Source of the DNA: SAR324 cluster bacterium | GTDB taxonomy: Bacteria > SAR324 > NAC60-12 | Direction of reading: 5' to 3' | Length of the DNA stretch: 64,000 nucleotides | NCBI GenBank assembly: GCA_022448485.1 | Contig: JAKUUI010000002.1 | Coordinates: forward strand, 18,761 to 82,760 | In this document: positions 8,135-39,575 of the stretch, piece by piece | Layout of the letters: each line of letters opens with the position of its first letter | Position numbering within the stretch: position 1 is the first letter of the stretch | Notes under the pieces: generated by a model | What the model was told of the DNA's origin: nothing | Seen by the model: the letters and a program-made list of their open reading frames with translations, nothing else | Database searches by the model: none | Program-made: the position numbers and the translations under genes

Positions 8135-10549
8135 TTAGATAGCTTGAACTAAACGGTCTTGTTGAACGCCTAAAAAGCCGTAGGATTTTATGAATTTTTT
8201 CTCCACTGGAGTTGTATAAAGTGTGGTTCGCTGTTGTGGAATGCGGTTGACGCTTTTGATTAATGCCACCATCCGTTCCGGAGGCATTTCTTGTCCGTGA
8301 ATGGCTCCGGCTGCACGGGTGATGCTTTCGTCCATCAGAGTTCCTCCCAAATCGTTGACTCCTGCATTGAGACAGGCTTTCACTCCTTCTGGACCCATTT
8401 TGACCCACGAAGTTTGGATGTTGGTGAAGCATGGATGCAAAACCAAACGAGCAACCGCGTGCACTAAAACCGATTCCCTGAAGGTTGGGCCTTTTCGAGC
8501 TTTGCCTTTGAGAAAAAGTGGGGTTTCCATGTGAACGAAAGGTAAAGGAACAAATTCAGTGAACCCGCATGTTTGTCCCTGGAGTTCGCGCAGACGTAGA
8601 AAATGCCGTGCCACATGCCGAGGCCTTTCAACATGCCCGTACATCAAAGTGGCGGTGGTACGGAAACCTACTTCGTGGGCATCTTGCATGACGGAAAGCC
8701 ACTGCTCGGTGCTCAGTTTGTCCGGACAAATAATTGCTCGAACCTCGTCATCCAAAACCTCTGCGGCGGTTCCAGGCAATGTATCTAGCCCGGCATCACG
8801 CAACAGTAATAAAAACTCCTTAACAGTTAGGCCAAGTGTCTTTGCTCCTTGCCAAACTTCTAATGGAGAAAAGGCGTGGATGTGCATCTCGGGAACGCTT
8901 GCTTTGATCTCCTTACAGATGTCGAGGTACGTTTTGCCTGTGTAATTGGGATGAATTCCGCCTTGCAAGCAAACCTCTGTTGCTCCACGCTTCCAAGCTT
9001 CTTTTGTGCGCCGCACGATTTCCTCCAATTTTAAATCATAAGGCTTACCACGCAAATTTTCCGACATTTTTCCTTTGGAAAAAGCGCAAAATCCACAGCG
9101 AAAAGTGCAGATGTTTGTGTAGTTGATATTTCGATTAACGGCGTAGGTGACAACTTCTCCATTGGTCTGTTTGCGAAGATCGTTAGCGGCAATGCAAACT
9201 TTTTCAAAATCATCTCCTCTTGAACAAAGAAGTTGTTCAATTTCCTGCTCGGACCACTCCACGTCAGTTGAGACATTTGCACGAATTTCCTCAATTTTAG
9301 TATTCACTGATGCTTTTTGAATACGCCACGGATTCCTGACAATTTCTGGGGGTAAAATTCCTTTTCCTGGAGCCCAAGAATCGGTACGGGCAAAGCCTTC
9401 GCCGTCTATCAAATGAAGAACTTTCGTTCGCAGTGTTTCGTCCAACCACGTATCGCCTTTAACCGCATAATCCGGATAAATCGCCAACCGTTCCGTCAGA
9501 AATTTTCTGGCACCTGACCTCCCTACACACTGGGAAGTGGCCCTGGACAGTTCCAATATTTCCGGCCACGGAGCTTCCGGATTCACATGATCGGGAGTCA
9601 CAGGAGATACCCCGCCCCAGTCATTGATTCCAGCATTGATTAATGCGGTCAAGTTTCCGGCACTAAGATTAGGAGGAGCTTGAAGGTTTATTTTCGGCCC
9701 AAAAATAATCCTTGCCACCGCAATCGTCCACACTAGTTCATCAAGATTCGGTTCCTGAGCATATGCCATTTGTGTTCCAGCTTTGGCTCGAAAATTCTGG
9801 ATGATTATTTCCTGAAGGTGTCCGTGTTGTTCGTTTAATTTCCGCAAATCCAGCAAAGACTCAATCCGCTCCAAGCGGGTTTCTCCAATACCAATCAAAA
9901 TTCCTGAAGTGAACGGAATTTTTTCAACTCCCGCAAGCCGGATGGTTTCTAAACGAATTTTCGGAAGTTTGTCCTGCGAACCGTGATGTGGTCCCCCTTT
10001 TTTACAGAGCCGTTTAGAAGAACTTTCCAGCATCAAACCCTGCGAAACGGAAACTTCCCGTAATTTCCTTAGGTCTTCCGCGGACATCGTTCCTGCGTTT
10101 ATGTGTGGCAATAGCTTGCTTTCTGAAACGACAAGTTCCGCTATTTCGGCCAAGTAAGAAAGCGTGGTTTTATGTCCCAAACTTGCCAGTTCTTCCCGTG
10201 CCACACGATAGCGAAGTTCTGGCTTGTCTCCCAAAGTGAACAACGCTTCTCTGCATCCAGATGCTTCTCCTTGTTTGACTAGTTCCAAAACATCGTCTGG
10301 AGTCATGAAATTTCGATGCTGTTTTTCTGGAGCTTCAGCGAATGTGCAGTAGTGGCAAAAATCCCGACAGAGTTTGGTCAGTGGAATGAAAATTTTGCGT
10401 GAATACGAGATGAGATTGCTGTGTCCTTCATCCCGGAGTTCGGTAGCGAGATGAAAAAGTTTTTGCGTGTCGGCGACTTCGGCAAGGGCTAGTGCTTCCA
10501 CAACAGTGGGCCGACGTTTTAGAAATTGATTCACATGAGTTTCATTCAT
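8135..10549 (-). CDS. fbiC: FO (7,8-didemethyl-8-hydroxy-5-deazariboflavin) synthase, fused CofG-CofH
   Basis: 804-aa ORF with two radical-SAM CxxxCxxC motifs: CRDFCHYCTF in the N-terminal half and CTFRCGFCAF in the C-terminal half. The size and two-domain layout match FbiC. ATG start at 10549. Confidence 0.9.
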   Translation of the reverse strand: MNETHVNQFLKRRPTVVEALALAEVADTQKLFHLATELRDEGHSNLISYSRKIFIPLTKLCRDFCHYCTFAEAPEKQHRNFMTPDDVLELVKQGEASGCREALFTLGDKPELRYRVAREELASLGHKTTLSYLAEIAELVVSESKLLPHINAGTMSAEDLRKLREVSVSQGLMLESSSKRLCKKGGPHHGSQDKLPKIRLETIRLAGVEKIPFTSGILIGIGETRLERIESLLDLRKLNEQHGHLQEIIIQNFRAKAGTQMAYAQEPNLDELVWTIAVARIIFGPKINLQAPPNLSAGNLTALINAGINDWGGVSPVTPDHVNPEAPWPEILELSRATSQCVGRSGARKFLTERLAIYPDYAVKGDTWLDETLRTKVLHLIDGEGFARTDSWAPGKGILPPEIVRNPWRIQKASVNTKIEEIRANVSTDVEWSEQEIEQLLCSRGDDFEKVCIAANDLRKQTNGEVVTYAVNRNINYTNICTFRCGFCAFSKGKMSENLRGKPYDLKLEEIVRRTKEAWKRGATEVCLQGGIHPNYTGKTYLDICKEIKASVPEMHIHAFSPLEVWQGAKTLGLTVKEFLLLLRDAGLDTLPGTAAEVLDDEVRAIICPDKLSTEQWLSVMQDAHEVGFRTTATLMYGHVERPRHVARHFLRLRELQGQTCGFTEFVPLPFVHMETPLFLKGKARKGPTFRESVLVHAVARLVLHPCFTNIQTSWVKMGPEGVKACLNAGVNDLGGTLMDESITRAAGAIHGQEMPPERMVALIKSVNRIPQQRTTLYTTPVEKKFIKSYGFLGVQQDRLVQAI

Positions 10550-10712
10550 TCAGTGTTTCTAGTACGAACATATATCGTGCGTTTTTTTGAAAGAGTTAAA
10601 GGATAGAATGGCTTATAAAGTTTGAATTAACAACCATTGATCACTAACCATAATACAGTTCATCCTGTTATCTTATCTAATTTATTTAAATGTTTGATTA
10701 TTTTACCAGTCA

Positions 10713-11348
10713 TCACATGATTTTTTGCTCCTGCAAGTATTCTTGTGCTCGTGTCTGAAAAGGTTGTTTACAAAGCTCCTGCAAATCGTCCTGTGTATCA
10801 ATGTCCAAACCGATTCCGGCTAGTTTAGTGGTGTTCAAGGTAAGCCCCATTTTCCTTGCTGTTTCCAAATGAGGAAAGTAGCTGTTTGGACCAAAACGTA
10901 AAGGGACTGCTGTCGGTGGGGAGAGAGCAATACAGTTCGAACCTTGTTCGTCTCGTGCCGGAACGATCGTCATTGTAGGTGCATTTCCATGCACCTCAAG
11001 AACTGTCTGAATTTCTTCTACCGTTACAAGTGGAACATCTCCTGGAAGCATCAACATGTGTTTTATTCCGTTTTCTTCCAAAGTAGCTGCTGTTCTTGCC
11101 ACCGCCTTCGTTTGTCCTTCATCCTGAACTGTAGACAAAACTGAAGCACCATTCCGTCGAGCAATTTCAGCAGCCGTCGGACATATCGTCGCCACCGCAA
11201 CTTGTTCAAACTCCGGAACAGCCATTACCGTAGCCAAAACATCCTCTAACATCGCAGCAAATAAATTTCGCCGTTGAATAGGATTTAGTACTGACTCCAA
11301 GCGGTGTTTCGCTTCATTCAGGTTTTTGACGGGGATTACGGCCCACAT
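10713..11348 (-). CDS. cofC: F420 biosynthesis guanylyltransferase CofC/FbiD
   Basis: 211 aa. The N-terminus MWAVIPVKNLNEAKHRL is typical of CofC/FbiD nucleotidyltransferases. It overlaps cofD by 13 nt and sits in the F420 operon. Confidence 0.8.
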   Translation of the reverse strand: MWAVIPVKNLNEAKHRLESVLNPIQRRNLFAAMLEDVLATVMAVPEFEQVAVATICPTAAEIARRNGASVLSTVQDEGQTKAVARTAATLEENGIKHMLMLPGDVPLVTVEEIQTVLEVHGNAPTMTIVPARDEQGSNCIALSPPTAVPLRFGPNSYFPHLETARKMGLTLNTTKLAGIGLDIDTQDDLQELCKQPFQTRAQEYLQEQKIM

Positions 11349-12343
11349 GGAGAATCTTTTTCCTTAAAACGCTTTGTACATTTTCCGCAGCAAGAAGAAA
11401 AATTCAATACTGTTTGAGCGAGTTCGATTTTTGTGGTGAGGTCGGTCATCATAGTATTGCTGACTTTTACGGCAATGTCCAGTTTCTGAATTTCCTGTGC
11501 GGTAGCTTCGTCTTGAATGTCTACGATAAATCCATCGATAAAGTCACGATAATAATTTGCGATGGCAGTGGCAGAAACTGGGTGTCCGAGTTCCCGGAGA
11601 TTTTTCTTAGTTGGACCTTTGACTGCATTACCACCTACAATCGGGGAAACTGCAATCACGGGTGCAGAACAGGCCCGTAACTCCTCGCGAACTCCTCTCA
11701 CCGCAAGAATTGGGTCAATGCTGAGGAAGGGATTTGATGGGCAAATCACCACTGCTTGCAGCGATTGGTTTTGGAGTGTTTCTATAAGCTCCGGATTTGG
11801 CAAGGCTTTATCTGCTCCCTGAAAACTTAATCCCGAGACAGTGGGTTTGCAACGTTCTCTTACAAAATAGTCCTGGAAGGTCATATCTCCGTCGGGAGTT
11901 TCGACAATCGTGTGCACTCGATCGTTGCTTACCGGAATAATCCTAGCCTCAATTCCAAATTGCTGACAAAAATAGGAAGTTATTTCAGTGAGGGAGACGC
12001 CTGCGCGGAGCCGGTGTGTACGCTCCAGATGTGTTGCTAAATCCATGTCTCCCAACTTAAACCATGTTTCGCCACCCATTTTTTCCAAGGCTTGCATGAC
12101 AGTCCATGATTCATTGGCCAACCCCCATCCTTTATCCGAGTCTGATTTTCCGGAAAGTGTGTACATCAACGTGTCCAAATCCGGTGAAATATTTAAGCCC
12201 AAATGTACAAAATCGTCTCCGATATTTCCGATGATCATAAGCTTTTCCGGAGGCATTGCGTGAGTCAGCCCAAGCGCTAGCTTGGCTCCTCCTATACCTC
12301 CGGAAAGTGCGAGGATGGATGGGGAGTGTGCCGAAGGGTTCAT
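11336..12343 (-). CDS. cofD: LPPG:FO 2-phospho-L-lactate transferase CofD/FbiA
   Basis: 335 aa. The glycine-rich loop LSGGIGGAKLALGL is typical of CofD. Its start overlaps the cofE stop as ATGA. Confidence 0.85.
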   Translation of the reverse strand: MNPSAHSPSILALSGGIGGAKLALGLTHAMPPEKLMIIGNIGDDFVHLGLNISPDLDTLMYTLSGKSDSDKGWGLANESWTVMQALEKMGGETWFKLGDMDLATHLERTHRLRAGVSLTEITSYFCQQFGIEARIIPVSNDRVHTIVETPDGDMTFQDYFVRERCKPTVSGLSFQGADKALPNPELIETLQNQSLQAVVICPSNPFLSIDPILAVRGVREELRACSAPVIAVSPIVGGNAVKGPTKKNLRELGHPVSATAIANYYRDFIDGFIVDIQDEATAQEIQKLDIAVKVSNTMMTDLTTKIELAQTVLNFSSCCGKCTKRFKEKDSPCGP

Positions 12344-13128
12344 CGAAACAAATCCTTTTCTTTGGGGCGAATCAATGATGAAGCCAAAGTGGGTGGTGCG
12401 GAAAAAGAATAACCACGGATTAAAACAATCGGTCTTCCTTCTGCCGCCTGACCTTGCAGTAGTGATGCAGCCGACGAAAACTCATCGGCAATTGCTTCCT
12501 CAGTCACTCTTAAAGGTTTGCCAAAAAGATCCGGCTGCCCTCGCAAATCTAATAGCGAGGGTAATCCGGAAACTCCTAGTGCGGTTCCTATTGTTCCGTT
12601 GCGCCAGGCGCGTCCGAGACTATCGTTGATGATTACTGCCACATTCACCTTGGTTTTTTGATGTAATTCTTTCCGAATGTTTGCTGCCGATGCATCTGGA
12701 TCAACTGGCAAAAGTAGAACTTGTTCTGCATTGCCGTCTGTTTCTACATTCGAGTGGTCGATGCCAGCATTGGCTAACACCACACCTTGACGATTTTCCG
12801 CCACAATCACTCCGGTACGATGCCGCACGATTTCACGGGATTCTAACGTAATCAGTTCCACTATTTGTGGATCTTTTTCTGTAGACTCGGCCAATGAATA
12901 GGCTTGCTCCGAAGGTGTCACCTCAGCAATCCGAACATAACGTCCTTCTGATTTAGAAATGATTTTCTGAGCGATGACGAGGATATCACCTTCCATCAAA
13001 ATCATTTTCGTCTGTTTCAAACTCTGGAGGATGAGTGCAACAAGATCGTCTCCGGGACGCACCAGTGGGATTCCGGATAATGCGGTCAGTGTCAGAGAAA
13101 CTGGTTGGGGATTGTCCGGTAAGTTCAT
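12340..13128 (-). CDS. cofE: F420-0:gamma-glutamyl ligase CofE (ligase domain only)
   Basis: 262 aa. The motifs PGDDLVALI and GDILVIAQKIISKSEGR are typical of CofE. There is no C-terminal nitroreductase-like extension of the FbiB type. Confidence 0.85.
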   Translation of the reverse strand: MNLPDNPQPVSLTLTALSGIPLVRPGDDLVALILQSLKQTKMILMEGDILVIAQKIISKSEGRYVRIAEVTPSEQAYSLAESTEKDPQIVELITLESREIVRHRTGVIVAENRQGVVLANAGIDHSNVETDGNAEQVLLLPVDPDASAANIRKELHQKTKVNVAVIINDSLGRAWRNGTIGTALGVSGLPSLLDLRGQPDLFGKPLRVTEEAIADEFSSAASLLQGQAAEGRPIVLIRGYSFSAPPTLASSLIRPKEKDLFR

Positions 13129-13131
13129 GCG

Positions 13132-13791
13132 TTAATTCCCGACTATGCGGATGCCGGAGTGGCCCATTTCATAACGCTTGTTGAGGAAAATGAGAACGGG
13201 AGTGAGAGATTCGCTTACTACAGAATTGTCGATAGGGCCAGCGTGCCAGCCTTTAAGTCCTGTTGCTTCTACGAGAGAGATGACACTGGTTCGTGCTTCC
13301 ACGTTGTTACCACAAACCAGTACATCGCCCTCAAGAGGTTTGTTCTTTGCTAAAGATGCCGCCGCCACGGTTTGGAAAGCGGAAACCAGACGCACATTTT
13401 TCCCCAGTCTCTCTTGCGCTAGTTTAGCGACAGATCCACCTTCCGGAAGTTGTACTCGACTCACCTTCGGAGGCACAAGTGGAACCGTCGTATCCACCAC
13501 AATTTTACCTTGAGCCGCTTCCATAATTTCCTCGACAATCGCCTTGTGGTTTGAGAATGGGACTGTTAGCACAATGATCCCCGCTGCGTTTGCGGCATCC
13601 CGATTGCTCAAGCCAGAGGCAGATGTTCTGCCCAAGCGTTCGTTGAGTTTTGCGGCGGAAAGCAGAGCTTTTTCTGCATTGCGAGAGCCAATAATAATTT
13701 TATATCCAGCCTGTCCCCATCGGAATGCCAAAGCCGAACCCAAGCCTCCGGTTCCTCCAATTACGGCAATGGTTTGTTTCACATCGGACAT
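13132..13791 (-). CDS. fno: NADPH-dependent F420 reductase (Fno/NpdG family)
   Basis: The Rossmann loop IAVIGGTGGLGSALA follows directly after ATG 13791 (MSDVKQT...). The ORF track extends to a TTG at 13836 that overlaps the tetR stop, and I prefer the ATG. The call rests on family resemblance plus operon context. Confidence 0.75.
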   Translation of the reverse strand: MSDVKQTIAVIGGTGGLGSALAFRWGQAGYKIIIGSRNAEKALLSAAKLNERLGRTSASGLSNRDAANAAGIIVLTVPFSNHKAIVEEIMEAAQGKIVVDTTVPLVPPKVSRVQLPEGGSVAKLAQERLGKNVRLVSAFQTVAAASLAKNKPLEGDVLVCGNNVEARTSVISLVEATGLKGWHAGPIDNSVVSESLTPVLIFLNKRYEMGHSGIRIVGN

Positions 13792-13828
13792 TTCAACTTT
13801 CTTCTGAAAAAGTAATTTGTGATGATTT

Positions 13829-14482
13829 TTAATCAAAGAATGTACGATACCAAATTCTTGTTACCACTTGTGAGGCAGTTTCCACTGTAATCTTTTCCGC
13901 ATTCAAAGCTTCCTGCGCAAACCAAGTGTAAGCGCACTGCTCCACCAGCGAAGCCATCGACTCGACGACCGTGCGTGCTGGCACACCATCCACCGATTCA
14001 ATGCCGTGTGAAGTTTTCAGGGCGAAAACGAATCGATCCACATGCCTTGTTCGCATTTGCCACCACACATCTCGAAAACGAGTATCAACCGTTCCCGCTT
14101 CAATCAAAGCCCGAATCACGTCGCGGTTTTCATGATAGTGTGCCAGGTAACCCCGGTTTGCCGCCAATAGCGCTTGGAAAGGGACAGTAGCAAAATCATA
14201 TCCCTGAGCGCGGCTGGCTAGATACATTTTCTCGTGTATGTCTCCGATCAAGTTGATAAAGAGATCGTCCTTGTTCTTGAAATAACGATAAAGCGCTCCC
14301 ATCGAAACTCCAGACTCTTTCGCCACGTCAGACATCCTTAGAGTGACATACCCCACCCGCCCGAAAATTTTGCGGGCGCAGTTGAGAATATTGCTGCGGG
14401 TCCGTTGTCCCTTTATAGTTTGAGGAGAAATGGTGATTTGAGGAAAAATCGATTGGTTCTCTTTTCTTGATGATGCTTGCAC
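13829..14482 (-). CDS. TetR/AcrR family transcriptional regulator, first gene of the F420 operon
   Basis: 217 aa with a GTG start. The N-terminal helix-turn-helix is RMSDVAKESGVSMGALYRYFKNKDDLF. Confidence 0.85.
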   Translation of the reverse strand: MQASSRKENQSIFPQITISPQTIKGQRTRSNILNCARKIFGRVGYVTLRMSDVAKESGVSMGALYRYFKNKDDLFINLIGDIHEKMYLASRAQGYDFATVPFQALLAANRGYLAHYHENRDVIRALIEAGTVDTRFRDVWWQMRTRHVDRFVFALKTSHGIESVDGVPARTVVESMASLVEQCAYTWFAQEALNAEKITVETASQVVTRIWYRTFFD

Positions 14483-14580
14483 TGTTTGCTATAAATCAGG
14501 AGTCATTTAAGGGAACGTTCAATCTCAATTCAAAGCATAATAAAAAAACCAAAATCATGCAATAAAAAAAGTGACATCAC

Positions 14581-14610
14581 TCTTGATTATTCAAGAATTT
14601 CTTGTACTAT
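14581..14610 (+). promoter_or_regulatory. Overlapping palindromes that form a candidate TetR operator, overlapping the candidate promoter TTGATT-16 nt-TACTAT
   Basis: Read directly: TCTTGA-TTAT-TCAAGA at 14581..14596 and CAAGAA-T-TTCTTG at 14592..14604 (three copies of one half-site). TTGATT is at 14583..14588 and TACTAT at 14605..14610. The element lies in the 126-nt divergent region between tetR and the ligase operon. Confidence 0.4.
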
Positions 14611-16291: not shown

Positions 16292-17073
16292 AAGCCCTAC
16301 TTGGTGACATTGAAGTCTCTTACACAGCCCAAGGCGAGGGAATGCCCGTAGTCTTTGTTCACGGACTAGCAGAGGGGAAGGAAAGCTGGTGTGAAATTCA
16401 GAAAAGAATCGGAAATTTCCGGACATATGCTTACGATTTACGTGGACACGGAGAAACAACACTAGGAATAGGCAAAGGAACGATAGAACAATTAGGAGAC
16501 GACTTGGTTACTTTTTTGGAAAAAGTTTGCGGTCGGGCTCAATGTGTCGGTTATTCTCTGGGAGGAACTTTAGTTCTTTGGGCGGCGGCAAAGCGTCCGG
16601 AATTGGTTTCTGCCGCAATTGTCGCTGGAACTTCGGCAGTGGTGGGGCGGCAGGCAGTCGGATTTTTTTCAGACCGAATCCGGATGATTGAAGAAAATTT
16701 TTCAGCATTCGCTCCAGCACTTAAAAAAGACACCGCATTACAAATTGTGACTTCAGGAGTTGATTTGGAAGCTCTCACAGCTCGACGGCTGGAAGCAGTT
16801 GGTAATGGTGGTGGATATGTGAATGCAGCACGGGCGATGATTGGTTTGCATGAAAATCCGCTCACCCCGTTATTATCCAATATTCAATGTCCTGTTAGTG
16901 TGATAGGTGGTTCGGGAGATATATTTTGCCCCAGAAAGGCAGCTGATATTATGCTTAATAAATTATCGAACGGCACTTATCAGGAAGTTAATGATGCTGG
17001 TCATTTGATGAGTGTTGATCAACTAGAAAATTATTCGAACACAATCCACAAATCATTACAAAGGAGAAACTAA
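16288..17073 (+). CDS. Alpha/beta-fold hydrolase
   Basis: ATG 16288 overlaps the ligase stop as ATGA. It has VVFVHGLAEG and the nucleophile elbow GYSLGG. The ORF-track 5' extension to 16171 lies inside the ligase gene. Confidence 0.8.
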   Translation: MKALLGDIEVSYTAQGEGMPVVFVHGLAEGKESWCEIQKRIGNFRTYAYDLRGHGETTLGIGKGTIEQLGDDLVTFLEKVCGRAQCVGYSLGGTLVLWAAAKRPELVSAAIVAGTSAVVGRQAVGFFSDRIRMIEENFSAFAPALKKDTALQIVTSGVDLEALTARRLEAVGNGGGYVNAARAMIGLHENPLTPLLSNIQCPVSVIGGSGDIFCPRKAADIMLNKLSNGTYQEVNDAGHLMSVDQLENYSNTIHKSLQRRN

Positions 17074-24276: not shown

Positions 24277-24304
24277 TCGTTTATCATCTTTTCTTTCATA
24301 TTCT

Positions 24305-24329: not shown

Positions 24330-24355
24330 TCACCTATCTAATCTCCACTTGAATC

Positions 24356-31280: not shown

Positions 31281-31301
31281 ACAATTCAAGAATTTTTTAC
31301 A

Positions 31302-33031: not shown

Positions 33032-33628
33032 TTAGCGCAGTCCATCATTTTCGGAAATCTGATTAGCTTCTAATCCGCCGACTCTTGCGTGTACACGTCC
33101 TCCTGTTGCCATGACAAGCCCATAAACAATTTCATGTGCCCTTGGTGCGTCCTGAACGTAAACTTCCATTGCGTCAAAATGGCTGCGTACGTAAGATGCG
33201 TTTATGTGCGTGATAGGGATGTCCAAACGAGATCCTATTCCACCGACTTTTTTGGCGGAAGGAACTATGGCTAGTGCTCCTCCTAGGGCTTCTCGCATGG
33301 CATAACCTCCTGGAACGTGCCAGAGTGCGCCGTGTTCCAGTTCACCTGCTTCCCCAACGATTGATCCTTTCCCGTAACTTTGTACCTGATCAGCTCCACC
33401 AAGCAAGTCGATAAGCTTATTTGCTGCATCAAGACCTATTGGTTTCAAGGCATCCATCATAGGGATTATTTTGCTAACGTACTGGCCTGCATAAGGATTT
33501 TCTAATACAATAAGAACCGCACCTTTTTTAATGGGTATCTTGCTGACAGGTCCTCCTTCATGAAAAATATTCTCAACATGGGTCACTATTTTTCTCACTT
33601 TGATCAAATCATTCATTGGAGATCTCAT
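33032..33628 (-). CDS. 'Amino acid synthesis' family protein (AA_synth/DUF1185-type), function unknown
   Basis: 198 aa. It shows the pattern ...ENPYAGQYV...LGG...YGKGSIVG..GELEHG...SHFDAMEVYVQDAPRAHEIV...GGRVHARVGG, which matches my memory of that family. An alternative start at ATG 33616 gives an 8-nt ATGAATGA overlap with the upstream gene. Confidence 0.7.
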   Translation of the reverse strand: MRSPMNDLIKVRKIVTHVENIFHEGGPVSKIPIKKGAVLIVLENPYAGQYVSKIIPMMDALKPIGLDAANKLIDLLGGADQVQSYGKGSIVGEAGELEHGALWHVPGGYAMREALGGALAIVPSAKKVGGIGSRLDIPITHINASYVRSHFDAMEVYVQDAPRAHEIVYGLVMATGGRVHARVGGLEANQISENDGLR

Positions 33629-34487
33629 CTAAATTGTTTTCAATAACAAGCCTTTGTTGTTGTAGTGAAAGATAAGCCGCTTCTATTTTTCCCGCCTTGA
33701 TAAATTTCCTCGCGGTTCGTAAACCTTGATGAAGCGCTTTAGAAGTTTGTTCTTCCGGCAATGGCGGGACATGAACTGTAACTGGAATCCTACCCAAATC
33801 ACTGTCGTCCTTTACTTCCGAAGCAGGTCGTTTTTCGATACCTTGATATTTGATATTAACATCATTTGCGATTAATGTGGCTGCAACATCAGCAATAGAA
33901 GCCGATCTAGCCAATACTGTTACAGCATCAGCAATGCCTAGACTTAGAGAGCGCCCGCGCCAGCCAGATGTTGCAATACCACGGACTGGGCTTTCGTATG
34001 GGAGGCATACTTTGGTGTTTAATTCCGGTATTTCAGCATTATCAACTACTCCTAGAGAATACGAAGAACCTTGGTTCAACCAAAAAGCAATATCCCCACC
34101 GTTATTTACATACATTTTCTGTATATGCTTCAGAAAAGAATCTTGTTTTTTTGCTTCAAACAACAACGTATTGAGAACCTCATCTGCCACTGAGCCGGCT
34201 ACTGCTGCCATTGGTGTGATAAAAACCTGCGAATCACTCACAGCAGCCAGCATTTTCTGAGCAATGCTGCCTTGTGGAACAGGATTATTGATGCTCCATG
34301 GGAGCCTCAGCAAATCCAATTCGGCAACCAGTTCATCCAAGATTGTATTGAAACGATTTTTGGCACAGGAGTACAAGTGTAGGCGTATCTCTTCTGGAGC
34401 TTCGACATGAGCAATTATGTCAATTGGTCCGTGCTGCAAATAAAGACGATCATTCCTCGGCAGCGGTTCAGCATTAGTTTCCTGCAT
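33609..34487 (-). CDS. UPF0280 family protein (ApbE-related fold, as I recall)
   Basis: 292 aa. The segments ITPMAAVAGSVADEV, VNNGGDIAF and GIATSGWRGRSLSLGIADAVTVLA resemble UPF0280/ApbE-like proteins. Confidence 0.55.
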   Translation of the reverse strand: MQETNAEPLPRNDRLYLQHGPIDIIAHVEAPEEIRLHLYSCAKNRFNTILDELVAELDLLRLPWSINNPVPQGSIAQKMLAAVSDSQVFITPMAAVAGSVADEVLNTLLFEAKKQDSFLKHIQKMYVNNGGDIAFWLNQGSSYSLGVVDNAEIPELNTKVCLPYESPVRGIATSGWRGRSLSLGIADAVTVLARSASIADVAATLIANDVNIKYQGIEKRPASEVKDDSDLGRIPVTVHVPPLPEEQTSKALHQGLRTARKFIKAGKIEAAYLSLQQQRLVIENNLDEISNE

Positions 34488-34535
34488 TTATTTGATCTGG
34501 TCCTTCAATAAATTTTGTTAATAAAATATTTAGAG

Positions 34536-36002
34536 TTAATTGTAAGGCCAAGGGTTATCTTGGTTCCATTGAGCAATTAGTGTTTCTCTTTGTTGGGTGA
34601 GGTCTTCCAAATATTGAACTTGCTCCATGTGTCCGCCTAGGGCTTCAAAGTCTGAGAGGTTCATTGTGAATTCAATCGGAGCCACTATAGCTGGGGTAGG
34701 GACACTACCAAAAGAATTTTCAGGCATTTTTGTTACATCGACCATGATCGTGATTCCTCCACCAGGCCAGACATATACAGGAGCCCCTCCGCATGTTATT
34801 CTAGTTAATAAATTTTGAACAGATCGAGTAAGGCTAACAGGGTTTTCAGTGACACCTGCTCTCAAACTACCACCGGCTCCTGCCATGAAAAGTACACTTG
34901 AGCAAGCAGGTTCACAGTTTTCTCCAATTCTATCCACTACTTTTTGAAGAATCTTTGGCATTTTTTGTTCACAAGGTTTGAGATTTTCGTCAAAAACAAA
35001 ATAAGTTGCATCTTCACCAGTTGTACTCACCATTAACAATCTCAAACCTGGATATGTGACACCTTTTTTAATACGATCTATGATTTCAAGAGGATTGGAA
35101 ATATCGGTCCCTCCCCAGCCGTGCCCTGGATTAGCTACCTGAAAATATCTTCCAGGAGTGGAACGCCGACCGCGGACCCTGATTCCGGAAGGTTCCATGC
35201 CTAAAAAGCGACCTGCCTGATGTTCTGAAAGCATGCCGGTTATGTGTTCATCCACTACAATCACTTCATCAACATGTCCATGCCACTGTTTTGCAAAGAT
35301 TCCGATTGTTGCAGAACCACAGCCTACACGCATTCTCTCCTCCTGTTCACCATCTATGATTGGAGCTGAACCCGCTTTAATGACCAGTCTGGAGCCTTCA
35401 TCAACTTCAAATTCTACAGATTTTTTATTTCCCAGGTCCATCATCATTTGGCAGGTAACTCTCCCTTCTTGCTTGCTGCCTCCTGTCAAATGATGAACTC
35501 CTCCAAGAGAGAGCATCTGTGAACCATATTCAGCTGTAATAACGTGTCCAACCTCTTCGCCTTGACAACGAACGGAGGCTTTTTCCGGTCCAACGTAACG
35601 ATCAGTATCGATTTTTATTTTATAGCTACAATAACTGAAGATGCCTTCTGTAACCACGGTGACCATATCCACATCATGATGTCTGCTCGCAATAATAAAA
35701 GGTGCTGGTTTGTAATCCGGATATGTGGTGCCTGCCCCTAAAGCAGTTGGAAAAATTGATTCTGGATTCAAGACGGAGCCGTCCCACTTTTTTGTTTGTT
35801 TTTCAAAAGGAACAACTGCTTCATTTTGGTCAATTACATTTTGAGTAAGGATTACGGGATCTATCCGTTGAAGTTTCCCGTTAAAGTTGCCATAGCGGTC
35901 ACATGATCCGGTTTTCCCTGGGCTAATTCTGCACAGAATCGGACAGGCATCGCAATTGACTTTTTCAGAAGATGTACTCTTTTCTTCAGAATTACTAACC
36001 AT
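34536..36002 (-). CDS. 6-hydroxynicotinate-reductase-like protein with an N-terminal Cys cluster
   Basis: ATG 36002 (MVSNSEEK...) overlaps the hydroxylase stop by 8 nt (ATGGTTAG). The N-terminal CDACPILC...C is a possible Fe-S site. As I recall, proteins of this size found next to UPF0280 and AA_synth genes are annotated 6-hydroxynicotinate reductase in other genomes. I cannot verify homology here. Confidence 0.4.
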   Translation of the reverse strand: MVSNSEEKSTSSEKVNCDACPILCRISPGKTGSCDRYGNFNGKLQRIDPVILTQNVIDQNEAVVPFEKQTKKWDGSVLNPESIFPTALGAGTTYPDYKPAPFIIASRHHDVDMVTVVTEGIFSYCSYKIKIDTDRYVGPEKASVRCQGEEVGHVITAEYGSQMLSLGGVHHLTGGSKQEGRVTCQMMMDLGNKKSVEFEVDEGSRLVIKAGSAPIIDGEQEERMRVGCGSATIGIFAKQWHGHVDEVIVVDEHITGMLSEHQAGRFLGMEPSGIRVRGRRSTPGRYFQVANPGHGWGGTDISNPLEIIDRIKKGVTYPGLRLLMVSTTGEDATYFVFDENLKPCEQKMPKILQKVVDRIGENCEPACSSVLFMAGAGGSLRAGVTENPVSLTRSVQNLLTRITCGGAPVYVWPGGGITIMVDVTKMPENSFGSVPTPAIVAPIEFTMNLSDFEALGGHMEQVQYLEDLTQQRETLIAQWNQDNPWPYN

Positions 36003-38748
36003 TTTTTCCTGCTTTTTGAAGTGTAGCAAGAACGCAGTCAGGTGTCGCTGGAACATGATGGATAGAAACTCCGGTGGCGTGCTTAATAGCACCTAGGATT
36101 GCAGGTGCTGTTGGAATCAATGCATGTTCACCAATTCCTTTGGCCCCGTATGGTCCCAACGGTTCCGGATCCTCAATCAAGATTACCTCGATTTCCGGCA
36201 TATCGCCAACTGTCGGCATAAGATAATCGTGCAGATTTTCACTGACCTTTTGTATGTACTCTTCCATTAGGGCCAATCCTAACCCTTGTGCGATTCCACC
36301 ATGAATCTGCCCTTCTACCTGAGTTGGATTGATGGTTTTCCCGACATCATGTGCAGCGGCAAGTCTCAGAACTTTAGTTGTTCCTAATAAAGTGTCCACT
36401 TCAACTTCAGCTATATGTGCTCCGAATCCGTAAGTTGCATATGGATTGCCTTGACGATTTTCATCGAGATGTGTTGTAGGTGGATCAAAGGTTCCCTTGC
36501 CCGTGAGTACATCACCACTTATTTGGGGTAAAATGTCAGAGAGAAGAATCACATGCTCACCAGAGTCATCTTTTGCTATTAGTTTTTCCCCCTCAATGTG
36601 AATAGTCGCTTTTTCAGAAGCTTCTGCATGATGAATGATTTGTGCTCTTAAATGTTCTCCTGCGAGTTGAGCTGCTTTTCCGGACACAAAAGTTTGTCTA
36701 GATGCAGAAGTTTTTCCTGCATCTGCGGTAAGGTCTGTGTCACCCATCACTAGATCAAATTGAGATGCTGGAATGCCCAGGGCATCCGCACAAATTTGAA
36801 CCATGATAGTGTTTGCTCCCTGTCCGATATCCATTGCTCCATTATACAAAGTAACTTTGCCTTCAGCATTTATACCGACACACATCGTGGAAGGGTTCGA
36901 CATTGAAGTGTTTCCGCATCCATACCAAACACATCCTGTACCGATCCCTCGTTTTGTATTAGCAGTTTTTTTATTGAACTCTTTTGCCTCTTTGCGCCAT
37001 TTGATCCAACGACTTTTAAGAGATTCTAAACACTCCACCTGTCCCACACTATTTTCAAGTAACTGGCCGGTGGCGGTTCGGTCTCCTTTCCGGAGAGCGT
37101 TCTTTATCCGAAACTCTAGAGCATCCATGCCAATCTTTTCAGCCAGTGCGTCCATTAGCGCTTCATGAGCAATGGCGGCCTGGGGGGTACCGAATCCACG
37201 GAAAGCCCCTGAAGGTGATTCGTTGGTGAACAATGCTCTGGTTTGGGAAAGCACATTAGGAACGAAATAAGGTCCGGTGCAGTGAATTGGAACCCTATCC
37301 GCAACTGTTGGCCCCCAGGAAGCATAGGCTCCTGTATTAAAATCCCCTCGATATTCAAAGGCAGTCAATTTTCCTTCACGGGTGCAACCGGCTTTTGCAT
37401 TCATGCGTACAGGATGTCTTTTGGTGGTTGAGGCCAGAGATTCAGGACGAGTGTAAATACAACGCACTGGACGATCGAGAATCCAAGCTGCAACCGCAAC
37501 CAAAGGTTGTAGTGAAATATCCAGTTTCCCACCAAAGCCACCACCGACTGCAGAGGGAATAATCCGAATCTGTTTCGGCTCAATGCCCAGTACTTGCGCC
37601 ACTTCTTCCTGATCCATGAACGGTGTTTGTGTGCAGACAAAGATTTCCAAGTTTTTCCCAACCTTGCAGGCATATCCTGCTTCAGGCTCAATGTATCCGT
37701 GCTCAATTGCTGAAGTGGTCCAGATTCCTTCGGCGACAGCATATGACTCTGAAAACCCTTTTTCAACATCACTTTTTTTCACGTAGCCCCTGGACAGAGT
37801 ATTGTCAGGAAATTGAGCTTGTACTGGTTCCAAATTTCCTGCTAGAGCACCATCCAAACCGCGGATGGCTTCTAGGGGTTCCCAACTCAATCCCAAATCC
37901 TCTTCGCTCACACAGTCAACACTTACCTGGTCACCAACCAATGCAAGCACGGCTTCTCCTCGGAAACGCACGTGGTTTTTCGCTAAAACGGGTTGATCTT
38001 TGATGTGTGGATAGATGCCGAAGCCATTGTTTCCCGGCACGTCGTCTGCGGTCAAAACTTTGACCAAACCGGGATATTTCTGCAGTACTTTTTCCGGGTC
38101 ATCATATGTGAATTTTGCACGTGGGTGTGGGGAACGGATGGCTCTAAGCCAAAGTGAATCATCCGGAGCCTGGTCTGCACCGAAAATTTCTTCTCCGGTG
38201 ATTTTTTTGCGCCCATCGACTTTTACCATGCGGGTGCCGACAGCATTTCCGGATTTTGGAACCGGCGGAGAAGACTGATCCTGCCCTGCTTTGAGTACGG
38301 CTTGAACTATTTTCGTGTATCCGGTACAGCGGCACAAGACGCCGCCGAGCGCGTCGAGCACTTGTTGTTCTGACGGGTTTGAAGTTTTGTACAACAAGGA
38401 TTGCGCCGCCATCAACATTCCTGGGGTGCAAATACCGCACTGAGCTGCGCCTTCGTCAAGAAATGCTTGTTGAAGTGGTGTCAGTTCTCCATTTTTTGAA
38501 AGTCCTTCTACGGTACGGACCTTACGGCCCCCCACCTGTCCGATTGCCGTCAAACAGGCATTGTGCTGCTTTCCGTCAATTAGGATTGTACAAGCCCCAC
38601 AGTCCCCTGCATCACAACCAACTTTGGTTCCAGTCAAGCACAAATCCTCTCGGAGTACATCAGAAAAACGGCGAAGTGGGTTAACAGAAAGAGTTTGTGG
38701 AGTGTCGTTCAGAATGAATGAAACGGTGATTTTTTCAGCTGTAATCAT
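35995..38748 (-). CDS. Xanthine-dehydrogenase-family molybdenum hydroxylase, fused [2Fe-2S] and molybdopterin-binding subunits
   Basis: 917 aa. The N-terminal CDAGDCGACT and CRCTGY are the two 2Fe-2S motifs. A large Moco domain follows, ending with the AKGIGEHA active-site-Glu-type motif. There is no CODH-type VAYRCSFR loop. Confidence 0.85.
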   Translation of the reverse strand: MITAEKITVSFILNDTPQTLSVNPLRRFSDVLREDLCLTGTKVGCDAGDCGACTILIDGKQHNACLTAIGQVGGRKVRTVEGLSKNGELTPLQQAFLDEGAAQCGICTPGMLMAAQSLLYKTSNPSEQQVLDALGGVLCRCTGYTKIVQAVLKAGQDQSSPPVPKSGNAVGTRMVKVDGRKKITGEEIFGADQAPDDSLWLRAIRSPHPRAKFTYDDPEKVLQKYPGLVKVLTADDVPGNNGFGIYPHIKDQPVLAKNHVRFRGEAVLALVGDQVSVDCVSEEDLGLSWEPLEAIRGLDGALAGNLEPVQAQFPDNTLSRGYVKKSDVEKGFSESYAVAEGIWTTSAIEHGYIEPEAGYACKVGKNLEIFVCTQTPFMDQEEVAQVLGIEPKQIRIIPSAVGGGFGGKLDISLQPLVAVAAWILDRPVRCIYTRPESLASTTKRHPVRMNAKAGCTREGKLTAFEYRGDFNTGAYASWGPTVADRVPIHCTGPYFVPNVLSQTRALFTNESPSGAFRGFGTPQAAIAHEALMDALAEKIGMDALEFRIKNALRKGDRTATGQLLENSVGQVECLESLKSRWIKWRKEAKEFNKKTANTKRGIGTGCVWYGCGNTSMSNPSTMCVGINAEGKVTLYNGAMDIGQGANTIMVQICADALGIPASQFDLVMGDTDLTADAGKTSASRQTFVSGKAAQLAGEHLRAQIIHHAEASEKATIHIEGEKLIAKDDSGEHVILLSDILPQISGDVLTGKGTFDPPTTHLDENRQGNPYATYGFGAHIAEVEVDTLLGTTKVLRLAAAHDVGKTINPTQVEGQIHGGIAQGLGLALMEEYIQKVSENLHDYLMPTVGDMPEIEVILIEDPEPLGPYGAKGIGEHALIPTAPAILGAIKHATGVSIHHVPATPDCVLATLQKAGKNG

Positions 38749-38750
38749 AT

Positions 38751-39575
38751 TTAAACAACTCCCGTGATAGCACGTTTCAATAACTCTGGAACGACGGCAT
38801 TTCTATAATTCGCTGAAGCACGCACATCATCGATCGGATCCAATAATTCCAAGTGCTTGGGATGAATCTCTATAGATTTGAGTCTTTGTCCAACACATTC
38901 CTTTTCTAGCAGCCGGAGCCGTTGCGCCACAGGTGAACAAGCACCAACAGCAACTTTGAGATTCAAAATCTCATCTTGTTCATTCAATTCGGCAACCACT
39001 CCTACCATTACAATCGAAATTACAAGATATGCTCGTATTCCTAGTTTCTCAAAATTACCGAATGCATTTTTTCCGGGATGAGGAACGAATATATTGCTGA
39101 CGAGTTCATCCTGTTTTTTTGCGGTCTTTCTATTTCCGAGAATGAATTCCTCCAGGGATAGTGTTCTAATACCTTGCATGGACTTCAGTTCTACCTTTGC
39201 ATCCAGTGCCATTAAATTTGGTACGCTGTCTGCTGCAGGAGATGCATTACAGATATTACCGCAAAGTGTTCCAGCATTTTGAGTCTGAATCCCACCAATC
39301 GTTTTTGCGGCTTTCTTCAGACCATCGAATGCAGATGGTAATTCGGCCTGAATGATGTCTGTCCATGTGGTTAACGCACCAAGAGAAAAGCCTTCATCTG
39401 TTTGTTGAATGGAACGAAGACCTTGGATTCCAGTTAAATCGAGTACTTTTTCGGTGATTGGCTTTCCGACTCTGGCAGGATAAAAATCGGTACCTCCTGC
39501 CAGCAGAGTCAATGGATATTCACTCAACGCAACAAGTGCGTCTTCAAGTTTATCTGGTCGAAAATACTTTAACAT
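38751..39575 (-). CDS. Molybdenum hydroxylase FAD-binding subunit (CoxM/XdhB-like)
   Basis: LLAGGTDFYPA is the FAD-binding motif. I prefer ATG 39575 (MLKYFRPDKLEDAL), because the ORF-track extension to 39650 adds 25 non-conserved-looking residues. Confidence 0.8.
   Translation of the reverse strand: MLKYFRPDKLEDALVALSEYPLTLLAGGTDFYPARVGKPITEKVLDLTGIQGLRSIQQTDEGFSLGALTTWTDIIQAELPSAFDGLKKAAKTIGGIQTQNAGTLCGNICNASPAADSVPNLMALDAKVELKSMQGIRTLSLEEFILGNRKTAKKQDELVSNIFVPHPGKNAFGNFEKLGIRAYLVISIVMVGVVAELNEQDEILNLKVAVGACSPVAQRLRLLEKECVGQRLKSIEIHPKHLELLDPIDDVRASANYRNAVVPELLKRAITGVV

Follow-up and report, generated by a model that had tools for sequence, protein, structure and literature searches.

An F420 synthesis operon next to a conserved catabolic module with an F420-class hydride transferase in a SAR324-like marine bacterium

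With a probability that we put at about 0.55, positions 8135–39575 of a 64,000-nucleotide stretch of SAR324 cluster DNA (the window) form a chromosomal catabolic island of a SAR324-like marine bacterium, built round a TetR-controlled regulon whose key redox enzyme requires F420. The region consists of five parts, and Pfam and NCBIfam searches place all gene classes where the first-pass annotation had put them (Table 1). The first is an operon, headed by tetR, for making and recharging F420; next comes a divergent seven-gene module encoding an aryl-type CoA ligase, an alpha/beta hydrolase, an F420-class luciferase-like hydride transferase (LLM), an SDR, an amidase, a crotonase and MaoC. Beyond these lie a hydrolase of the isochorismatase family; a Tat/ABC importer accompanied by a lactamase pair that is ATP-dependent and by an orphan membrane protein; and a convergent operon encoding a molybdenum (Mo) hydroxylase, a 6-hydroxynicotinate reductase, an ApbE-like protein and AA_synth, without an enamidase. 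An identical copy of the LLM protein occurs in 320 indexed blocks of a metagenome collection, in which ten marine contigs of 30–68 kb carry the same gene order; the arrangement is thus not a single assembly's oddity. Alignments, and the genes called on metagenome contigs of identical sequence, served to revise the coordinates of fno, the CoA ligase, the alpha/beta hydrolase, the amidase, the 6-hydroxynicotinate-reductase homologue and the FAD subunit.

Table 1. Features in and next to the region (bit scores are against NCBIfam models, cut-offs in brackets)
Feature	Position	Strand	Length	Remarks
Dimethylglycine-dehydrogenase (DMGDH)-type gene	5639–8101			nearby
fbiC, fused CofG/CofH FO synthase	8135–10549	-	804 aa	Pfam Radical_SAM + CofH_C; NF006687, 1089.7 (1018)
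cofC/fbiD guanylyltransferase	10713–11348	-	211 aa	TIGR03552, 140.7 (105)
cofD/fbiA	11336–12343	-	335 aa	TIGR01819, 305.8 (257)
cofE F420:glutamyl ligase	12340–13128	-	262 aa	one Pfam domain; TIGR01916, 271 (181)
fno NADPH:F420 oxidoreductase	13132–13791	-	219 aa	TIGR01915, 182.5 (150); start per identical-contig gene calls
tetR	13829–14482	-		Pfam TetR_N; first gene of F420 operon, putative regulator of LLM module
Shared divergent control region	14483–14629	.	147 nt
Second operator copy, degenerate, upstream	14542–14560			sequence read directly
Putative operator-promoter element AAAAAAAGTGACATCACTCTTGATT	14564–14588			sequence read directly
Core palindrome GTGACATCAC	14571–14580			inside operator-promoter element
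Acyl/aryl-CoA ligase	14630–16291	+	553 aa	Pfam AMP-binding
Alpha/beta-fold hydrolase	16288–17073	+	261 aa	Pfam Abhydrolase_1
F420-class LLM	17073–18077	+	334 aa
SDR, FabG-like	18126–18884	+	252 aa	Pfam, NCBIfam
Amidase-signature amidase	18877–20298	+	473 aa	Pfam Amidase, PDB relatives
Crotonase-family enzyme	20302–21051	+	249 aa	Pfam ECH_1
MaoC (R)-hydratase, two-domain	21070–21867	+	265 aa	Pfam MFE-2_hydrat-2_N + MaoC_dehydratas
Isochorismatase-family amidohydrolase	21924–22655	-	243 aa	Pfam Isochorismatase
ABC importer, Urt/Liv type	22963–27664	+		solute-binding protein, two permeases, two ATPases; family matches
Orphan polytopic membrane protein	27723–29150	+	475 aa	absent from earlier description
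Hydantoinase/oxoprolinase A + B (ATP-dependent lactamase-type pair)	29244–33029	+		Pfam
AA_synth/DUF1185 protein	33032–33628	-	198 aa	Pfam PF06684; PDB 3byq (unknown function)
ApbE-like/UPF0280 protein	33609–34487	-	292 aa	NF003322, 326 (290)
6-Hydroxynicotinate-reductase homologue	34536–36002	-	488 aa	Cys cluster at N-terminus; formerly a 518-codon ORF
Mo hydroxylase, fused 2Fe-2S + MoCo subunit	35995–38748	-	917 aa	Pfam
Mo hydroxylase FAD subunit	38751–39575	-		Pfam FAD_binding_5 + CO_deh_flav_C; start per L097 alignment

The F420 operon runs tetR-fno-cofE-cofD-cofC with fbiC downstream, 163 nt beyond cofC, and diverges from the module at the operator. All five F420 genes score above curated NCBIfam cut-offs. 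The complete known F420 core that had been claimed is therefore present as regards fbiC, cofC, cofD, cofE and fno, but its completeness is qualified by a CofE that lacks a nitroreductase/FbiE domain in the Pfam scan and by the lack of an FbiE/nitroreductase partner among the scanned window ORFs. The precursor of the F420 tail may accordingly be 2-phospholactate, PEP or 3-phosphoglycerate, and F420 synthesis may depend on genes outside the window.

The control region between the two operons measures 147 nt rather than the 126 nt first reported, since the start of the CoA ligase moves to 14630. The putative operator-promoter element is overlapped by promoter-like hexamers on both strands and contains the single copy of AAARYGAYRTCR in the 64-kb window; in 35 of 64 loci, at 39 sites altogether, the same sequence stands 5' of the ligase gene. 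The conserved element, AAAAAAAG(C/T)GA(C/T)(A/G)TC(A/G)C followed by TCTCTTGAC, accompanies the module and TetR, is kept from low-GC SAR324 to high-GC Actinobacteria, and is likewise located 5' of regulon genes for ABC or MFS transporters. Across phyla, 43 of 80 loci have a TetR adjoining the module that is 47–78% identical to that of the window. Co-regulation of the two operons, proposed earlier, is accordingly plausible: the module's conserved TetR heads the F420 operon and a conserved operator lies in the shared region. The degenerate second operator copy counts against this explanation.

We surveyed 80 LLM-anchored loci and scored neighbours within 10 kb. The module is spread over Actinobacteria, Alpha- and Gammaproteobacteria and SAR324, with its core trio in 62 of the 80 loci, five genes in 50 and all seven in 37; the SDR accompanies the LLM in 58 and the amidase is present in 54. 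At least five lineages have F420 genes (fbiC, cofCDE, Fno or Fgd) attached to the module, each time in another architecture. These are the window lineage (window plus L011/L012/L101/L102/L105), Acidiferrobacterales (L092, fbiC-cofC/fgd/cofD-cofE with the module), Woeseiaceae (L093, ...maoC-tetR-fno-cofC-fbiC-ACAD-cofE on one strand), Nocardioides/Marmoricola (L094, ...ACAD-maoC-fbiC-fno-cofC), Intrasporangium (fbiC-fgd with the module) and Gordonia. The acyl-CoA dehydrogenase within the actinobacterial modules is generic and not recognisably a glutaryl-CoA dehydrogenase. The recharge enzyme is exchanged between lineages, being either Fno or Fgd (498 bits, cut-off 420), a swap that speaks for a need of the module for the reduced form, F420H2.

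Could the F420 operon serve general metabolism and adjoin the module by accident? Module and F420 genes are indeed found apart in many genomes, but we regard an accidental adjacency as very improbable given at least five independent joining architectures, including same-strand fbiC, fno or fgd, and cofC inserted within the module operon, an F420 gene at 13 of the 80 module loci, and the module's own regulator as first gene of the window F420 operon. Dedication of the cofactor pathway to one catabolic route, as the first-pass annotation had it, holds only in part: the linkage recurs in varied gene orders, but at 67 of the 80 loci no F420 gene lies within 10 kb. Likewise, the F420 genes travel with the island in those architectures, but most of the distant F420 clusters are without the module. 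Clusters whose CofE is 51–58% identical have no module, so its pathway is not the only one that the cofactor genes serve. Neither F420-gene adjacency nor nicotinate-operon adjacency is obligatory for the module.

The assignment of the LLM to the F420 class is supported. Its top NCBIfam matches are Mer and TIGR03842, with FMN families about 30 orders of magnitude worse, and its eleven best PDB sequence matches and 28 best Foldseek matches are all F420 enzymes (AlphaFold2 model, pLDDT 88.5). The protein is 61–89% identical across phyla. With none of the curated F420 families in NCBIfam does it reach the cut-off, so F420 use is inferred rather than demonstrated. Judged by sequence and predicted structure, the LLM groups with F420 enzymes rather than FMN enzymes, is not Mer and would represent a new subfamily. 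A true methylene-tetrahydromethanopterin reductase (Mer), acting in C1 metabolism beside the DMGDH-type gene near the island, might be suspected since Mer gives the top match in NCBIfam, PDB and Foldseek and is the JGI name for LLM homologues. This reading is barely credible: scores against the Mer models lie far under the cut-offs (150 vs 276, 144 vs 349), identity to Mer is only 26–29%, and the Glu6 position mutated in PDB 8qq8 aligns with a nearly invariant Ser8. Also against a Mer role are the neighbours in the operon, namely a CoA ligase, hydrolase, SDR and amidase in 50–62 of the 80 loci, and the occurrence of orthologues in Actinobacteria, from which no H4MPT pathway is known.

F420 could instead be the oxidant. 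The LLM would then be a dehydrogenase in the manner of Fgd, Adf or hydroxymycolate dehydrogenase, acting perhaps on a ring hemiaminal or an alcohol, and Fno would hand the hydride to NADP+. [quoted passage not shown] We nevertheless consider oxidation unlikely, as the very closest relatives of the LLM are Mer enzymes, which are reductases, and as the recharge enzyme adjoining the module in L092, L035, L057 and L061 is Fgd, which makes F420H2 from glucose-6-phosphate; its presence there is sensible only if the module consumes F420H2.

The nearest PDB relatives of the CoA ligase are salicylate-AMP ligase and DhbE, and its top NCBIfam models, all below cut-off, are medium-chain fatty-acid-CoA and cyclohexanecarboxylate-CoA ligases; by sequence it resembles aryl-acid-activating enzymes. 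The alpha/beta hydrolase has PcaD enol-lactonase and meta-cleavage-product hydrolases as weak relatives, and the crotonase is EchA19-like and oxepin-CoA-hydrolase-like with scores below cut-offs. Next to the module, the isochorismatase-family protein gives a weak nicotinamidase match (4.9e-6), and its orthologues adjoin the module in L011 (81%) and L017 (66%). Family matches and a twin-arginine motif, TRRSLLG, in the solute-binding protein agree with the Tat-exported Liv-type importer described earlier. This importer type was not found at other module loci among the 80, where neighbouring ABC systems are just 22–42% identical. The orphan membrane protein gave no Pfam, NCBIfam or PDB sequence match and its AlphaFold2 model (pLDDT 82) no fold match; in L099 and L100, too, it adjoins an ABC transporter of this kind. 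The hydantoinase pair reaches 537 and 347 bits against caprolactamase models (cut-offs 1000) and was absent from the surroundings of all 80 LLM-anchored loci. Neither importer nor lactamase is conserved along with the module.

The right-hand operon is collinear with a canonical nicotinate cluster (L097), to which its five genes are 46–70% identical (AA_synth 62%, 6-hydroxynicotinate reductase 70%, fused Mo hydroxylase subunit 63%); unlike the window operon, L097 has an enamidase homologue. The fused Mo hydroxylase subunit matches subunits of E. barkeri nicotinate dehydrogenase (3hrd_A and 3hrd_B, 283 and 217 bits), the reductase homologues are named 6-hydroxynicotinate reductase at NCBI and JGI, and neighbouring orthologues of the ApbE-like protein carry PF27030 AbpE_bact. 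Parts of the layout have been described before: the right-hand operon is the known proteobacterial nicotinate cluster (PMC3511419), and F420 clusters of Proteobacteria with Fno or LLHT genes beside them have been drawn (PMC8498797, Fig. 10). The region is a composite rather than a single supercluster, with the hydantoinase pair at 0 of 80 loci, the Mo hydroxylase at one, the reductase trio at one and the window-type importer not found at the others.

This composite character raises the question whether the module degrades some other amide-bearing carboxylic acid rather than pyridines, the nicotinate-type operon, importer and lactamase being mere neighbours. Nicotinate-operon genes lie within 10 kb at only two of the 80 loci (Mo hydroxylase in L016; reductase, ApbE-like and AA_synth trio in L014), actinobacterial regulons have MFS or other ABC transporters in place of the window importer, and the window's nicotinate-type operon is convergent to the module and 11 kb from it. 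We hold such a patchwork to be possible yet doubtful, as two further lineages have module and nicotinate-type genes interleaved or directly adjacent. One strand of L091 (SAR324) reads hnr-apbE-AA_synth-ABC-module-AA_synth-amidohydrolase-MocA-XdhC, and in L092 an orthologous Mo hydroxylase lies directly 3' of maoC; these lineages support the functional tie proposed earlier. The aryl-acid likeness of the ligase also speaks against a patchwork, as does the absence from the window of the enamidase on which the canonical cluster depends, a missing step that genes close by could supply. L091 retains an enamidase-like gene together with the module, so the latter is no mere stand-in for the enamidase.

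Under the preferred reading of an F420-requiring regulon, an inducer would free TetR, so that pathway enzymes, F420 and the NADPH-driven recharge enzyme are made together, and the LLM would use F420H2 as hydride donor to a CoA thioester made by the ligase. We infer both the substrate and the reaction of the LLM; the odds that the substrate class is a pyridine carboxylate are roughly even, and we have low confidence in the individual steps. A pyridine carboxylate such as nicotinate (or nicotinamide, via the isochorismatase-type amidase) would be taken up and hydroxylated beside the ring nitrogen by the Mo enzyme, and the ring would then be reduced by the 6-hydroxynicotinate-reductase homologue (free acid) or the LLM (CoA ester). 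The presence of a dedicated ring reductase in the window leaves the LLM without a defined step and counts against this reading. The product, an enoyl-CoA analogue, could be hydrated by MaoC and oxidised by the SDR, the ring opened by the hydrolase or crotonase, or by the ATP-dependent lactamase pair, in place of the absent enamidase, and the nitrogen taken off by the amidase to leave a glutaryl-CoA-like product. The linkage offers a testable reason for F420 production in non-actinobacterial bacteria.

Open reading frame listing and profile searches bore out the gene content claimed for the region at 8135-39575, which is collected in the table below. The genes that flank it belong to housekeeping or general metabolism, with a UvrA-like gene and a dimethylglycine-dehydrogenase-type gene to the left and dnaE, a class II (Asp/Lys/Asn-type) aminoacyl-tRNA synthetase, groEL, miaA and miaB to the right. 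GC content is 0.41-0.48 within the region versus 0.40-0.46 in the remaining window; in base composition the region does not stand out as a foreign island. Scanning the entire window against Rfam returned no RNA family, and a plasmid search with the luciferase-like protein of the module (LLM) gave no match (tblastn, E 1e-40). Ten marine contigs of 30-68 kb have the same gene order as the window, the LLM protein recurs unchanged in 320 indexed blocks of the metagenome collection, and the closest genome bins carry the labels Deltaproteobacteria or SAR324.

Features of the window and of the region at 8135-39575
Feature	Coordinates	Strand	Remarks
UvrA-like ORF	1-5487	-	at least 1,829 codons; runs off left window end
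Dimethylglycine/sarcosine-dehydrogenase-type gene	5639-8101	+	
fbiC		-	163-nt gap separates it from cofC
cofE, cofD, cofC		-	after fno, in that order
fno	13132-13791	-	after tetR
tetR	13829-14482	-	first gene of left operon
Degenerate operator copy	14542-14560		
Operator element	14564-14588		core GTGACATCAC at 14571-14580
AMP-forming CoA ligase	14630-16291	+	diverges from tetR
Alpha/beta hydrolase		+	second module gene
LLM	17073-18077	+	third module gene
SDR, amidase, crotonase, two-domain MaoC hydratase		+	module genes four to seven
Isochorismatase-family gene		-	next after module
ABC importer			after isochorismatase-family gene; binding protein with TRRSLLG twin-arginine motif
475-aa protein, no family	27723-29150	+	after importer
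Hydantoinase A/B pair			after 475-aa protein, before right-hand operon
Right-hand operon	33032-39575	-	convergent; FAD subunit, fused FeS/Mo subunit, 488-aa protein, UPF0280 protein, AA_synth protein
ACAD	46547-47716		outside module
Alpha/beta-hydrolase frames	58986-59507, 59593-60489	+	adjacent

Three observations concern the surroundings. The dimethylglycine/sarcosine-dehydrogenase-type gene consists of an FAD domain and a folate-binding GcvT domain and ends convergently 34 nt from the end of fbiC; it could hint at N-methylated substrates, with no link to the island established. The UvrA-like ORF matches full-length UvrA over its first ~960 residues (E = 0) and, past that match, repeats the Walker A and ABC signature motifs of UvrA type, so that it appears to encode a fused tandem UvrA-UvrA protein. 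The adjacent alpha/beta-hydrolase frames near the right end may represent a split or frameshifted gene, the first of them (173 aa) matching only the middle of the fold.

In the profile search all five F420 proteins scored above the NCBIfam curated cut-offs. FO synthase FbiC reached 1089.7 bits with NF006687 (cut-off 1018) and matched both the CofG and the CofH domain models, while CofC/FbiD, CofD/FbiA and the CofE ligase, the last a single-domain protein of 262 aa, exceeded the cut-offs of TIGR03552, TIGR01819 and TIGR01916. Behind its intergenic gap, fbiC may have a promoter of its own. A saturated F420 tail is made in the PEP route with the nitroreductase domain of the FbiB C-terminus or of FbiE, and in other routes with a 2-phospholactate- or 3-phosphoglycerate-specific CofC (PMC8498797, which cites Heiss 2002 for Fno). 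No nitroreductase-family match was found among the window ORFs scanned.

The first-pass annotation had placed the LLM in a family that contains many F420H2-dependent enzymes, and NCBIfam, PDB sequence and Foldseek searches all favor F420 over FMN. The thirteen best NCBIfam matches are all of F420 class (E 8e-44 to 1.6e-13), each below its own cut-off, and are led by Mer and TIGR03842, both F420-dependent families. The fourteenth is an LLM family for which no cofactor is stated (2.2e-13). A family named for FMN first appears at 6.4e-13, some 30 orders of magnitude behind the best match. Among PDB sequences the eleven best matches are F420 enzymes, with Mer at 6e-33 and bacterial luciferase at 1.5e-5. 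When the AlphaFold2 model of the LLM (pLDDT 88.5) was searched with Foldseek, ranks 1-28 were all occupied by F420 enzymes and FMN enzymes appeared from rank 29; Mer matched with a TM score of 0.80 at 26-29% identity.

Mer is the closest relative of the LLM in solved fold and sequence, and the two have the beta3 motif region GxxVTN...R.P in common. That the LLM is itself Mer was nevertheless ruled out, as its scores with the Mer models TIGR03555 and NF002619 are half the cut-offs (150.3 vs 276 and 143.7 vs 348.7), the position of Mer Glu6 (mutated in PDB 8qq8) aligns with a nearly invariant serine, and the operon context is unrelated. With TIGR03842, the CPS_4043 family, the score is 145.8 against a cut-off of 295.5. 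From these comparisons the LLM is best described as a putative new subfamily of F420-class luciferase-like hydride transferases (LLHT).

We surveyed LLM-anchored loci with one genome per species and analysed the best 80 of 142 relatives with 10-kb flanks. In these 80 the LLM is unusually well conserved, with an identity of 61-89% across SAR324, Alpha- and Gammaproteobacteria, Binatia, Acidimicrobiia and Actinomycetes. Since ORF calling, as used for all-against-all clustering of the 80 loci, was noisy in high-GC loci, gene counts were taken from a tblastn matrix. Ligase, hydrolase and LLM occur together in 62/80 loci, the same three with SDR and amidase in 50/80, and all seven module genes in 37/80. 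Because an orthologous TetR lies beside the LLM in 43 of the 80 loci, the regulator belongs with the catabolic module and not with F420 synthesis. The ORF clustering revealed no widespread partner in the 80 loci beyond the module, an ACAD and transporters. A prediction that the ACAD of actinobacterial and Woeseiaceae modules is glutaryl-CoA dehydrogenase was rejected, as it gave only generic, below-cut-off matches; the window's own ACAD is only 30% identical to the module-inserted one. Cultured strains with orthologous modules include Nocardioides sp. Root140, Gordonia amarae NBRC 15530, Pseudonocardia thermophila DSM 43832 and Actinomadura madurae ATCC 19425.

The tetR-ligase intergenic regions have a common element, AAAAAAAG(C/T)GA(C/T)(A/G)TC(A/G)C followed by TCTCTTGAC, in many cases with another copy some 22 bp upstream, and it is kept from 44%-GC SAR324 to high-GC Actinobacteria. 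We predict this to be the operator recognized among the TetR orthologues, with a palindromic core GYGAYRTCRC, an A-tract and an adjacent TTGAC. There are 75 copies of the 12-mer AAARYGAYRTCR in 1.5 Mb of loci; 39 of them lie just upstream of the ligase gene and the remainder mostly before ABC binding-protein or MFS transporter genes or beside tetR. The window holds a single element, overlapped by promoter-like hexamers on both strands, and a search of it for further copies, including the stretches ahead of the importer, fbiC and the Mo-hydroxylase operon, found none. No terminator-like site is present between tetR and fno. We infer joint control of the module and the tetR-F420 operon by a single repressor. 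As an observation in its own right, the A-tract, GYGAYRTCRC and TCTCTTGAC are conserved at the DNA level in the window, in the tetR-ligase intergenic regions of L011-L090 (the 80 LLM-anchored loci) and upstream of transporters. Because the element is kept as DNA between high-GC Actinobacteria and low-GC SAR324-like bacteria, its conservation suggests horizontal spread of the regulon along with its regulatory DNA.

In 13 of the 80 loci an F420 gene is present within 10 kb of the LLM, in clearly different architectures. Complete chromosomes with a module but no F420 genes close to it include OZ253557.1, OZ245021.1, OY282433.1 and CBDBLP010000004.1. In the Acidiferrobacterales locus (L092), fbiC-cofC, fgd, cofD-cofE and a further LLM precede the module, which is directly followed by an orthologous Mo hydroxylase. 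The Woeseiaceae order is module-tetR-fno-cofC-fbiC-ACAD-cofE on one strand, Nocardioides has a module with ACAD and then fbiC-fno-cofC, and Intrasporangium has fbiC-fgd. The recharge enzyme beside the module is interchangeable, either Fno or Fgd (Fgd at 498 bits vs a cut-off of 420), which argues that the module would consume F420H2. In the reverse test, anchored on CofE in metagenome contigs, relatives at 71-100% identity keep the whole window arrangement, whereas at 51-58% identity clusters lack the module and are mostly of the fbiC-cofC-fgd-cofD-cofE type. The association therefore recurs without being obligatory, and of the earlier suggestion that the cofactor pathway is dedicated to one degradative route, the repeated joining stood and a strict linkage did not. 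We also note that a bona fide Fgd and a further TIGR03619-class LLM (L092 3288-4292 and 6290-7255) lie among F420 biosynthesis genes just upstream of the Acidiferrobacterales module, where at least three F420-class LLMs fall within one 11-kb stretch.

By homology, the single operon at the right would encode a Mo nicotinate dehydrogenase, a 6-hydroxynicotinate reductase and two conserved unknown proteins. NCBI and JGI give the name 6-hydroxynicotinate reductase to homologues of its 488-aa protein, which carries an N-terminal Cys cluster. The operon is collinear, at 46-70% identity over the five genes in common, with a canonical alphaproteobacterial nicotinate cluster (L097) ordered FAD subunit, FeS-Mo subunit, reductase, ApbE-like, two AA_synth, ABC transporter, Amidohydro_1 and MarR. 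[quoted passage not shown] Judged by sequence, the right-hand operon is the nicotinate cluster of these three. The canonical cluster has an enamidase, whereas tblastn with the amidohydrolases of L097 and of a SAR324 bin (L091) found no enamidase (Amidohydro_1) homologue in the window (E 1e-3). The window's ABC transporter is of another kind, its binding protein being 24% identical, and the window adds the predicted F420-dependent CoA-thioester module and an ATP-dependent lactamase pair.

The proposed tie between the Mo-hydroxylase/ring-reductase genes and the LLM module recurs in two further lineages. The SAR324 bin carries, on one strand, reductase, ApbE-like, AA_synth, ABC transporter, module, AA_synth, amidohydrolase, MocA and XdhC, and in L092 from Acidiferrobacterales maoC is immediately followed by the orthologous Mo hydroxylase (62% and 52% identity). 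Separately, all four contexts compared (window, L091, L097 and the comparison locus L098) have, after the reductase homologue, an ApbE-like gene (PF27030/UPF0280) and either one or two genes of the AA_synth (DUF1185) family, and L098 keeps reductase homologue, ApbE-like and AA_synth genes without a nearby Mo hydroxylase. The ApbE-like protein may attach flavin to the reductase.

The lactamase pair and the importer, which had been placed in one route with the module, are only weakly supported there by the comparison: the pair was found in none of the 80 LLM-anchored loci, and the importers beside the module elsewhere are of a different kind. With 537 and 347 bits against the caprolactamase CapAB equivalogs (cut-offs 1000), the pair can be placed, by these scores, only within the wider hydantoinase/oxoprolinase A/B family, and not in CapAB. 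The 475-aa protein is a polytopic membrane protein with a confident AlphaFold2 model (pLDDT 82, pTM 0.86), with no sequence match and no fold match in the PDB (best TM 0.16). Its family, for which there is no Pfam or NCBIfam model, has more than 2,000 homologues with conserved His/Trp/Pro positions and adjoins a Liv/Urt-type ABC transporter in 3/3 contexts (window, L099 6001-7482 and L100 6001-7419, the latter two being comparison loci). The genomes with this arrangement are unrelated, and the protein probably belongs with the transporter and not with the pathway chemistry.

In descending order of confidence, we propose that the left operon would make and recharge F420H2 for the LLM; that one TetR would govern both divergent operons; that the substrate would be a pyridine-carboxylate-like N-heterocycle hydroxylated by the Mo enzyme; and that CoA activation would be followed by ring reduction, hydration (MaoC), oxidation (SDR), ring opening by hydrolase, crotonase or lactamase, and deamidation by the amidase. 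The nearest solved relatives of the ligase are aryl-acid adenylating enzymes. We tentatively put at about one in four the probability that the LLM is an F420H2-dependent reductase of a (hydroxy)pyridine-carboxyl-CoA or its tetrahydro derivative, within a module for CoA-dependent, F420-driven N-heterocycle ring reduction and opening. Gene identities, a conserved module and operator, repeated recruitment of F420 genes and an F420-class LLM have been demonstrated here. The overall interpretation of the first-pass annotation is partly supported; the lactamase pair and the importer are weakly supported parts of it, and the linkage is not obligatory.

Two catabolic systems bear comparison. In the npd picrate/2,4-dinitrophenol cluster of Rhodococcus and Nocardioides, which encodes the Fno NpdG and the LLHT hydride transferases NpdI and NpdC, an LLM-family enzyme passes hydride from F420H2 to an electron-poor ring. 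To our knowledge, this cluster lacks F420 biosynthesis genes, is confined to Actinobacteria and involves no CoA thioesters. By gene class the window resembles it as a catabolic cluster with its own NADPH:F420 reductase and LLM-family enzyme, but differs in substrate class and in having F420 biosynthesis genes and a CoA-thioester module. Isonicotinate catabolism via citrazyl-CoA was reportedly described by Kretzer et al. in 1993 in Mycobacterium sp. INA1, an F420-producing actinobacterium; the hydroxylated pyridine carboxylate is said to be converted to a CoA thioester, reduced in the ring and cleaved hydrolytically with release of ammonia. We know of no genes ever assigned to this pathway. Its logic is that proposed for ligase, LLM, hydrolase and amidase, an analogy only.

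The literature search found no description of the module, its operator or F420 synthesis placed under a catabolic repressor, no paper that brings F420 together with an amidase, a CoA ligase and a luciferase-like protein, and no paper linking F420 with nicotinate catabolism. To this extent the suggested novelty stands; it does not extend to the nicotinate cluster or to proteobacterial F420 biosynthesis clusters with Fno, Fgd or LLHT neighbors, both already known (for the latter, Ney 2017 as summarised in PMC8498797, Fig. 10). The window likewise clusters fbiC, cofC, cofD, single-domain cofE and Fno, with an LLHT-class gene nearby, but here the TetR gene of a defined catabolic regulon comes first in the cluster, which runs divergently from the conserved predicted operator of this regulon. 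F420-dependent ring reductions are known from actinobacterial catabolism, and according to a 2021 review no F420-dependent enzyme had been studied from bacteria outside Actinobacteria, and why Proteobacteria make F420, and its role there, was unknown (PMC8498797).

If the proposed ring reduction is true, Actinobacteria, sponge symbionts and the abundant SAR324-like bacteria of the sea would have in common a counterpart, for heterocycles, of the benzoyl-CoA strategy. F420 would then have its first defined physiological role in Gram-negative bacteria of the Proteobacteria-like kind, and the spread of F420 genes with the module would be explained. The locus offers a concrete, testable answer to why Proteobacteria make F420, consisting of a conserved catabolic regulon with an F420-class LLM, the repeated recruitment of F420 synthesis and recharge genes, a recognizable operator, and modules in cultured strains. 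Because the host lineage is common in ocean metagenomes, the pathway may matter for the turnover of vitamin-B3-like and other N-heterocyclic compounds in seawater and sponges.
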